Shown in pieces: positions 54,170 through 54,320 of a DNA stretch of 64,000 nucleotides. The DNA is taken from sequence record PP925834.1. One strand, written 5' to 3'. Source of the DNA: Escherichia phage MiataMamis. Each line of letters starts with the position of its first letter. Positions within the stretch are counted from its first letter, which is position 1. Position numbers and translations under genes: made by a program. The notes beneath the pieces are model-generated. The model was not told where the DNA came from. It searched no databases and was given only the letters and a program-made list of their open reading frames with translations.

Positions 54170-54320
54170 CGCCGCAGGGTGGTATTCCCTGCGACTTGTC
54201 CAGCGTCCTGGACCAGCAAGACCCAACAAGTGGGTTACCAGAGGCCTATTACCCGCGCTTCGGCTCGACCTTGTTACAGGTTGGCTGGGGTCACATCGTC
54301 ATGTGCTGGCTGCCCCTACC
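54170..54320. ncRNA. GC-rich island of stacked perfect hairpins (candidate structured RNA or processing/termination element)
   Basis: At least four perfect hairpins: CGCAGGG..CCCTGCG (54174-54193), GTCCAG-CGTC-CTGGAC (54198-54213), ACCCA-ACAAG-TGGGT (54221-54235), CACAT-CGTC-ATGTG (54292-54305); two share a CGTC loop; visibly GC-rich against AT-rich flanks. Confidence 0.35.

Follow-up and report, generated by a model that had tools for sequence, protein, structure and literature searches.

The 64,000-nucleotide stretch of DNA from Escherichia phage MiataMamis analysed here (PP925834.1; called the window, over its full length) derives from an rV5-like myovirus (Vequintavirus) and contains, among genes lying on the minus strand, a GC-rich island of hairpins at 54170–54320. 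The reading that agrees best with the sequence comparisons is that this island, read from the minus strand, represents in the rV5 lineage a family of structured non-coding RNAs (ncRNAs) restricted to phages, and we regard it as almost certain that the element is a real, conserved RNA fold. The whole non-coding element, of ≈193 nt, extends from 54359 to 54167, that is from the stop codon of a small open reading frame (ORF) to the −35 box of the next promoter, with its conserved centre at 54316–54237 (element coordinates are in window numbering, on the minus strand, and descend from 5′ to 3′).

A previous inspection of the letters alone (the sequence-only reading) had described the island as a stack of perfect hairpins within 150 bp, and while the hairpins are as it described them, its limits give way to the longer minus-strand element. 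The GC content is indeed 0.61 at 54170–54320 against 0.44 in the window and 0.38–0.40 in the AT-rich flanks, and the four perfect hairpins, with stems of 5–7 bp, are found on the plus strand as CGCAGGG-tggtatt-CCCTGCG (54173–54193), GTCCAG-cgtc-CTGGAC (54198–54213), ACCCA-acaag-TGGGT (54221–54235) and CACAT-cgtc-ATGTG (54292–54305), together with an additional 4-bp hairpin, ACCT-tgttac-AGGT. The CGTC tetraloop common to two of them corresponds to GACG on the transcribed minus strand. Five stems of at least 5 bp were observed, compared with 1.06 ± 1.19 in 1000 dinucleotide shuffles, 12 of which reached five. The most conserved portion of the island (54288–54240) is the one that least resembles a perfect hairpin, and the island is not a loose hairpin stack but belongs to a widespread family defined by a three-way junction and a pseudoknot.

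The conserved fold and its covariation

The universal unit, of ≈75–110 nt, is made of a helix P1, a pseudoknot, an optional inner hairpin P1a and a three-way junction P0/P2/P3, the asymmetric 5′ internal loop of P1 forming the pseudoknot with the tail that follows P0. In the window, P1 pairs GGGG (54316–54313) with CCCC (54290–54287) and abuts P0, and the pseudoknot joins its 5′ strand GCCAG (54310–54306), situated in the P1 internal loop on the 5′ side, to CUGGU (54241–54237), including a G-U pair that fits an RNA on the minus strand only. P1a, CACAU-GACG-AUGUG (54305–54292), is the second of the two CGTC hairpins mentioned above, and is GNRA-capped in other families. The conserved core with the P0/P2/P3 junction, covered by our covariance model R1 (54288–54240), shows the invariant pattern A-CCUGUAA-N-AAGG-UC ... 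CGG-UAA. It comprises the P0 5′ strand GCC (54285–54283), pairing with GGC (54246–54244), the P2 hairpin ACCU-GUAACA-AGGU (54281–54268) with its conserved hexaloop GUAANA, the short P3 hairpin of 2 bp (G-C and C-G) with the loop CGAAGC (54264–54255), which covaries, and the junction GGGUAAUA followed by the P0 3′ strand (54254–54244), where the window carries one extra G. The invariant single-stranded nucleotides are the A before P2, the UC after P2 and the GGUAA before the P0 3′ strand (G35, G36, U38, A39 and A40), and altogether 18 columns, in the junction strands and the P2 loop, are invariant across the 53 distinct cores from which R1 was built. The features that define the family, namely the A-CCUGUAANAAGG-UC...CGG-UAA junction, P1 abutting P0 and the pseudoknot that the P1 5′ loop forms with the tail, are all present in the window.

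The loop region C-U-G-U-A-A-N of P2 is identical to the anticodon loop of tRNA-Tyr (GUA). Mimicry of that loop was considered and set aside as a weak lead only, the helix register being unsuited (4 bp, with a 6-nt loop closed by U-A); the likeness is probably a coincidence, worth recalling given the defence systems that target tRNA-Tyr.

Covariation was evaluated on alignments made with MAFFT only and not fitted to structure. Among the 53 cores, the P0 pair 5-44 occurs as C-G (38), G-C (8) and A-U (7), and the pair 6-43 as C-G (40), G-C (6), A-U (4) and U-A (3), neither being ever unpaired; the P3 pair 26-33 is C-G in 38 cores, U-A in 10 and G-C in two, and the outer pair of P2 is A-U in 51 and G-C in two. 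The inner pairs of P2 are invariant, yet they are fixed by the search pattern and compensatory change could not show there; all other helices show it. The covariation score over the 53 cores was 0.305 against 0.103 in shuffles, with none of 500 shuffles as high, and it drops when the partners are slid.

The stems are likewise kept within the single lineages, in agreement with the compensatory changes that the sequence-only reading had proposed to look for. In the rV5-like trio formed by the window, L021 and L090 (loci of our collection carry L numbers), none of the 44 proposed pairs is lost and the substitutions in the stems are all compensatory, with five such changes, one each in P0, P3 and the accessory hairpin H4 and two in the accessory hairpin H5; a P0 pair is G-C in the window, G-U in L021 and A-U in L090, and a P3 C-G pair becomes G-C in L090. 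A six-sequence family has 25 pairs, 99.3% paired, and eight of these are double-changed (three in P1, two in the pseudoknot, one in P1a, others including P0), and the 18 T4-likes are 91.8% paired, with three pseudoknot pairs that covary, as in columns 21-117 (C-G 11, A-U 3, U-A 3, G-C 1) and 22-116 (G-C 12, C-G 4). P1 varies compensatorily within families (GCGU/ACGC, GCAA/UUGC and GUGC/GCAC; AAAGG/CCUUU, AAAGC/GCUUU and AAAGA/UCUUU; GGGG/CCCC versus GGAAC/GUUCC in L108), and the P1a stem of L108-type phages is CUACG/CGUAG with the GACG loop retained. The pseudoknot may be wholly different on an identical junction, being GGGUA/UACCC in L054, GGGAG/CUCCC in L077 and CAAGAA/UUCUUG in L209 and L170, and a permutation test over 25 families gave a mean of 4.36 against 3.77 ± 0.16, with 3 of 5000 permutations as high. 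The G-U pairs found in P0 and in the pseudoknot are compatible with a minus-strand RNA alone.

Distribution of the family and its copy at T4 vs.8

A sensitive BLAST search with the island retrieved 118 rV5-like phages and ≈460 T4-like genomes, the T4-like matches spanning only 44 nt (54245–54288) at 85–89% identity in otherwise unrelated DNA. Homologues were collected by two pattern scans of IMG/VR, one of metagenomes and one of 185,579 species genomes, and filtered with R1. The window contains a single R1 match, at 54288–54240 on the minus strand (52.1 bits, E = 6.5e-16); the runner-up, at 50908–50955 (9.4 bits), lies inside a 515-aa terminase ORF and was discarded as a chance match rather than a second copy. 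R1 gave 63 matches in the first 100 loci (48–71 bits), six more in L101–L114 and 52 in contigs from gut, marine, saline and wastewater metagenomes (42–71 bits), for a total above 110 in viral and metagenomic contigs (42–71 bits), well apart from the other phage pattern matches, which did not exceed 22 bits. The 43 pattern matches found in the 185,579 representative species genomes all scored at most 32 bits and look coding (as one in a GloA-like gene in L129) or due to chance, so that no bacterial match was admitted to the family. BLAST did not find the motif in 5,426 complete E. coli genomes, and a host origin or prophage copies were set aside on this result. By this test the family appears to be phage-restricted, and from its sharing among otherwise dissimilar lineages, together with its absence from bacteria, a specific and important role for lytic phages may therefore be proposed. 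BLAST for named relatives of the uncultured variants gave no match with the L054-type element and, with the L031-type element, only the shared core and an HNH gene.

In T4 the copy sits between denV and vs.8, with helices GGGAA/UUCCC around CCUCAU/AUGAGG, compared with GGGG/CCCC around CACAU/AUGUG in the window, and with different flanking sequences. In the reference record NC_000866.4 vs.8, whose product is an uncharacterised terminase-like ATPase, is annotated at 64253–64912 (219 aa; L231 754–1413) and spans the motif core (64855–64902; 65.3 bits). Other annotations begin vs.8 at MRTFLTG (180 aa), and its relatives are without a conserved N-terminal extension. Moreover, in type-2 T4-likes the vs.8 frame is closed by an upstream stop (read by eye from the L004 sequence), and indels between homologues break every frame, such as GGG in the window versus GG and a 1-nt shift between T4-like subgroups. 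Because the frame is closed upstream and indel-shifted in other T4-likes, the extension would be an annotation artefact hiding the RNA, and the start codon of vs.8 in the T4 reference is probably wrong. The record would thus need correction, the first ≈40 codons of ‘vs.8’ being an RNA element and not protein.

A short upstream ORF (uORF) ending in AUGA overlaps the vs.8 start in T4-likes. It is not conserved in frame or length, its AUG is missing in L027 and L164, and a conserved uORF peptide was rejected, the homologues reading the conserved nucleotides in differing frames. No tRNA lies within 5 kb of the motif in T4-likes.

Functional reading and rival explanations

Outside T4-likes, a same-strand tRNA was found within ≈800 nt in about 19 of 29 loci, sometimes 6–50 nt away or on both sides of the motif. 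L095 and L035 have the 3′ end of a tRNA 6–10 nt ahead of the motif; for most copies the nearest tRNA is more than 100 nt (100–600) off, or the locus has none. Homing endonuclease genes adjoin the motif in some loci, and no neighbouring gene is conserved, the downstream ORFs being unrelated across families. In L108 and L110 a consensus TTGACA-N17-TATACT promoter stands immediately 5′ of the RNA, and in L095, L105 and L106 an intrinsic terminator, and no gene, comes right after the motif, before a new transcription unit. Of the three options offered by the sequence-only reading (a stable 3′ RNA element, an RNase processing platform or an independent small RNA), the last is the one that best fits these loci. 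In the window the element would not act as a leader, since the gene that follows is served by a promoter of its own situated between the two. In this phage the RNA would be a stand-alone and probably trans-acting product of the tRNA island, arising from an upstream promoter or by read-through and ending at the terminal hairpins. The invariant junction, held rigid by the pseudoknot, would serve as a pocket that specifically binds a small ligand or a conserved factor of host or phage, and the accessory GC-rich hairpins would most plausibly protect the RNA ends. We give a slight preference to this joint proposal of a stand-alone ncRNA of the tRNA island with a specific binding pocket and extra hairpins guarding its ends, in which both the action in trans and the pocket are inferred.

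Comparison with known RNAs was made with the 4,227 models of Rfam 15, at the gathering threshold and then, on short inputs, at E ≤ 10. The island has no match at gathering and none at E ≤ 10 over 53650–56200 or 54150–54380, so that the Rfam search suggested by the sequence-only reading assigns it to no family of that release; the T4 copy likewise has none at E ≤ 10. In 16 other motif loci the models matched nothing at the motif itself and elsewhere only tRNAs, two group I introns and one abiF RNA, and neither ARAGORN nor the Rfam tRNA model calls anything at 54167–54359. These other RNAs of the same tRNA islands (an abiF-type RNA that adjoins a tRNA and scores 45.4 bits, and group I introns of 90.9 and 81.4 bits) lie at L054 3624–3655, L084 4112–4333 and L103 3115–3418. 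In our literature search the core sequence was absent from papers, and no description of this RNA came to light for vs.8, among T4 ncRNAs or in rV5 transcriptomes.

Precedents in kind are the T4 rnaC and rnaD (species 1 and 2 RNAs), GOLLD and ROOL, which are also structured RNAs of unknown function beside phage tRNAs and likely co-expressed with them. T4 rnaC differs in that R1 has no match in T4 67,000–74,000, where rnaC and the tRNA cluster lie, whereas the T4 motif is ≈6 kb away at denV/vs.8, and homology with rnaC or the T4 tRNA region was thus discarded; GOLLD and ROOL are 500–800 nt long and their Rfam models match no motif-bearing locus tried. The lambda nut/boxB hairpins are similar, as a lead only, in having small conserved loops (here GACG twice and the GNRA-like GUAANA) and in that the next gene in rV5-likes encodes an arginine-rich N-terminus, but this protein is absent from the T4-like and most other motif loci and there is no antitermination context. 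As far as these resources show, the fold and the family are new, while the category of orphan structured RNAs beside phage tRNAs is known.

We also put forward, tentatively and with less confidence than the stand-alone proposal, that the family is a class of functional RNAs of virulent phages that has so far been overlooked, being a new ribozyme or else an aptamer that binds a ligand (a riboswitch, or an RNA ‘sponge’ for a signalling or defence molecule of the host). T4, the rV5-like phages and many uncultured ones of marine, gut and wastewater origin all keep its three-way junction braced by the pseudoknot, and it would have been hidden in T4 because the reference vs.8 coding sequence runs over the motif.

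Several observations weigh against a new, phage-restricted and stand-alone family. The minimum free energy (MFE) of the 193-nt element is not significantly beyond that of shuffles (z = −1.17 on the minus and −0.60 on the plus strand); the argument is thus one of conservation and covariation and not of hairpin stability. A naive anchored-helix test did not separate P1 from shuffles (4.9 vs. 4.45) and, this statistic being uninformative, P1 rests on the within-family covariation. The search pattern fixes P2 and the GGUAA junction, so that divergent or bacterial relatives differing there would be unseen. A 2023 survey of 10,006 phage candidate RNAs lists 8,495 unnamed ones from IMG/VR (PMC10690425), among which this family may already stand. 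Tandem copies ≈40–70 nt apart, as typical of riboswitches, occur in several phages (L016 5092–5250; L075 9021–9180; L072 830–962; L160 2108–2240; L223 363–522), the second copy of L016 having compensatory changes in P2 (a G-C outer pair) and P3 (GUC/GAC). Finally, the T4-like motif is always directly 5′ of vs.8 or another gene, with its pseudoknot 3′ strand 3–6 nt before a usually conserved AUGGA, as in a cis-regulatory leader.

These last points favour a cis-acting aptamer of the riboswitch type, where the junction would bind a metabolite or signalling nucleotide and the ligand-stabilised pseudoknot would hide the ribosome-binding region, most clearly in T4-likes, where the uORF coupled to the vs.8 start follows the pseudoknot 3′ strand. 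The architecture is aptamer-like, with an invariant junction, a pseudoknot and GNRA-capped peripheral hairpins. The ZTP (pfl) riboswitch has the same strand order (P1, pseudoknot strand in J1/2, hairpin, P1′, sub-domain, pseudoknot 3′ strand), and the ZTP, purine, TPP and THF aptamers share with the motif the invariant junction nucleotides, occasional tandem copies and, in T4-likes, the place 5′ of a gene. Against these likenesses, the motif has no sequence or model similarity to such aptamers (Rfam, E ≤ 10), it is absent from the bacterial genomes searched, which is unusual for a metabolite sensor, and its downstream genes are of no common family across lineages, leaving no consistent regulated gene. 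It is moreover often followed by a terminator or a promoter and not by an expression platform, as shown by the consensus promoter before the next gene in the window and its relatives and by the terminators in L095, L105 and L106, and the uORF is as inconstant as described above. We therefore consider a riboswitch rather unlikely. Less likely still is a new self-cleaving ribozyme that would process polycistronic tRNA-island transcripts, akin to the theta ribozymes, although the order P1(5′)-PK(5′)-hairpin-P1(3′)-domain-PK(3′), where PK is the pseudoknot, supported here by covariation, is that of the nested double pseudoknot of the hepatitis delta virus (HDV) ribozyme (P1-PK-P1a-P1′-[P0 domain]-PK′), HDV-like (theta) ribozymes adjoin phage tRNAs and have their catalytic C at the first J4/2 position (PMC10879173), and the conserved unpaired junction nucleotides could make an active site. 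In the motif the linker equivalent to J4/2 is variable, of 0–8 nt, and without a conserved C (CU in the window, AAAUA in T4, UUUACAUN in type-2 T4-likes, UUAAUU in L095, absent in L054), P1 has 4–6 bp instead of 7 bp with a basal G-U, there is no P1.1, and the conservation falls in the three-way junction equivalent to P4, a domain that is dispensable in HDV-like ribozymes. Theta ribozymes have a tRNA no farther than ±5 nt from their cleavage site, which is at the 5′ end of P1, whereas the shortest distance here is 6–10 nt (L095, L035). The Rfam HDV, twister, hammerhead, pistol and hatchet models have no match at E ≤ 10 in the window or the T4 copy, no Rfam ribozyme matching at that threshold, and membership in the hammerhead, twister or HDV classes was rejected on this result, on the missing catalytic C and on the length and order of the junction strands, which are unfit for a hammerhead.

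It is improbable that the element is only generic furniture of RNA ends, that is hairpins that stabilise a 3′ end, pause or terminate transcription or offer RNase III/E sites. H4–H6 are indeed simple stable hairpins on the 3′ side, just before a promoter, they vary by lineage and H4 can be lost, and a terminator often comes directly after the motif; yet the stabiliser and RNase III/E platform options of the sequence-only reading leave unexplained the ≈18 invariant unpaired and junction bases and the covarying pseudoknot common to T4-like, rV5-like and uncultured phages, and H6 has no U-tract, no terminator is called and the overall stability is not above that of shuffles. Scarcely credible, finally, is a protein-coding segment or a DNA site (an operator or a homing-endonuclease target). 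The annotation of vs.8 across the motif in NC_000866.4, the long ORFs that cross the island in the window and the homing endonuclease genes nearby would speak for it, but the indels and the closed type-2 frame described above, the pair-wise compensatory substitutions and the G-U pairs compatible with one strand only argue for RNA.

The motif lies in or beside tRNA islands, now recognised as counter-defence hot-spots, and since T4 carries it, as a stretch of ≈100 nt upstream of vs.8, what it does can be tested directly in the most favourable genetic system available. The covariance model is usable to annotate hundreds of phage genomes that now have a ‘hypothetical protein’ or a blank there.

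The element and its surroundings in MiataMamis

Lineage-specific additions flank the conserved unit. The 5′ module (54356–54327) consists of the CCCUUAGAGGG hairpin, CUUGAU and the AGUGCACCACACU hairpin; present in single copy in the window, it is identical in L103, L108 and L110 though the flanks diverge, was found only at rV5- and L108-type loci, and in L103 and L108 recurs as a duplicate on the 3′ side of the core. On the 3′ side, the accessory hairpins H4–H6 are most of what the sequence-only reading saw; they covary, yet differ between lineages. H4, ACCCA-CUUGU-UGGGU (54235–54221), has an A-U pair changed to U-A in L090 and is dispensable, since it is deleted in L219. H5, CUU..GUCCAG-GACG-CUGGAC..AAG (54220–54195), is an inverted repeat that contains the first CGTC hairpin, with two compensatory pairs in L090 (GCUCAG/CUGAGC). 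The terminal H6, CGCAGGG-AAUACCA-CCCUGCG (54193–54173), is followed by GCGAACUUGACA and by no U-tract, and no intrinsic terminator was called on the minus strand in 53600–56200. The T4-likes have neither the 5′ module nor H4–H6, and the element aligns end to end with the rV5-like L021 and L090 and partly with L103, L108 and L110.

The 1.1 kb surrounding the island shares 99.1–99.6% identity with the best-listed Escherichia phage records, and no less than 95% with any of the 118. In the order of transcription, on the minus strand, an 80-aa gene (54698–54456) is followed by a 24-aa ORF, MNIQFKDEFDGFISGCFETGFGED (54435–54361), whose stop directly precedes the RNA element. The sequence-only reading was thus right to place the island after a small gene and before a consensus promoter, as read on the gene-sense strand, and the promoter site exists: TTGACA-N17-TAAAAT (54166–54138, minus strand; 11 of 12 matches) forms the 3′ limit of the element, serves a 112-aa gene (54109–53771) and is kept in all relatives. 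The ORFs crossing the island are likewise spurious, as supposed, being without support, and the long extension of the downstream gene to a TTG start lacks conservation. After the 112-aa gene come another promoter and a cluster of seven tRNAs (53674–52859), on the same strand and ≈500 nt downstream of the element. A weak candidate promoter upstream, TTTACA-N17-TATCAT (54465–54437, minus strand; 10 of 12 matches), with TATTAT as its −10 in L090, is a possible source of the transcript. It would start transcription within the 24-aa ORF (54361–54435), and since it would do so the ORF and this promoter cannot both be as annotated; the KDEFDGF portion of the ORF persists in L108 (≈8330–8360) as an 8-aa ORF, MKDEFDGF.

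The neighbouring genes in the window belong to PHROGs of unknown function. The 112-aa protein (PHROG 3330, function unknown) has an arginine-rich N-terminus (MADTTKKRRRRGRPLKEE..., KKRRRRGRP) resembling RNA-binding arginine-rich motif (ARM) peptides. It is kept together with the RNA in L103-type phages, and is a possible partner of the RNA in this lineage only. One tRNA called by ARAGORN within the cluster (53202–53104, minus strand) is 99 nt long and has an anticodon of four bases (atcc); it scores 37.5 bits with Rfam, is annotated as tRNA-Lys in phage Mangalyan and occurs also in L021 and L090; it may be intron-containing or frameshift-suppressor-like.

Eighteen GenBank records named ‘Campylobacter phage’ (MG0656xx), most of them unannotated, match this phage at no less than 95% identity across the region, and at 99.5% in the records listed; their names likely reflect mislabelling or contamination. 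A second GC-rich non-coding island of ≈270 nt lies at 55650–55925 on the minus strand, upstream of a 192-aa gene, and is a candidate for a further structured RNA: its MFE has z = −2.63, with none of 200 shuffles as stable, its conservation is confined to the 118 rV5-like records, and its sole Rfam signal is a weak rli43 match (22.9 bits against a gathering score of 100). At 56060–56150 on the minus strand four tandem hairpins, UGUCCGUGAUACGGACA (GUCCG-N5-CGGAC), precede a palindromic stretch rich in AT (56030–55950), and the arrangement resembles an operator, an array for protein binding or an RNA hairpin in repeated copies.

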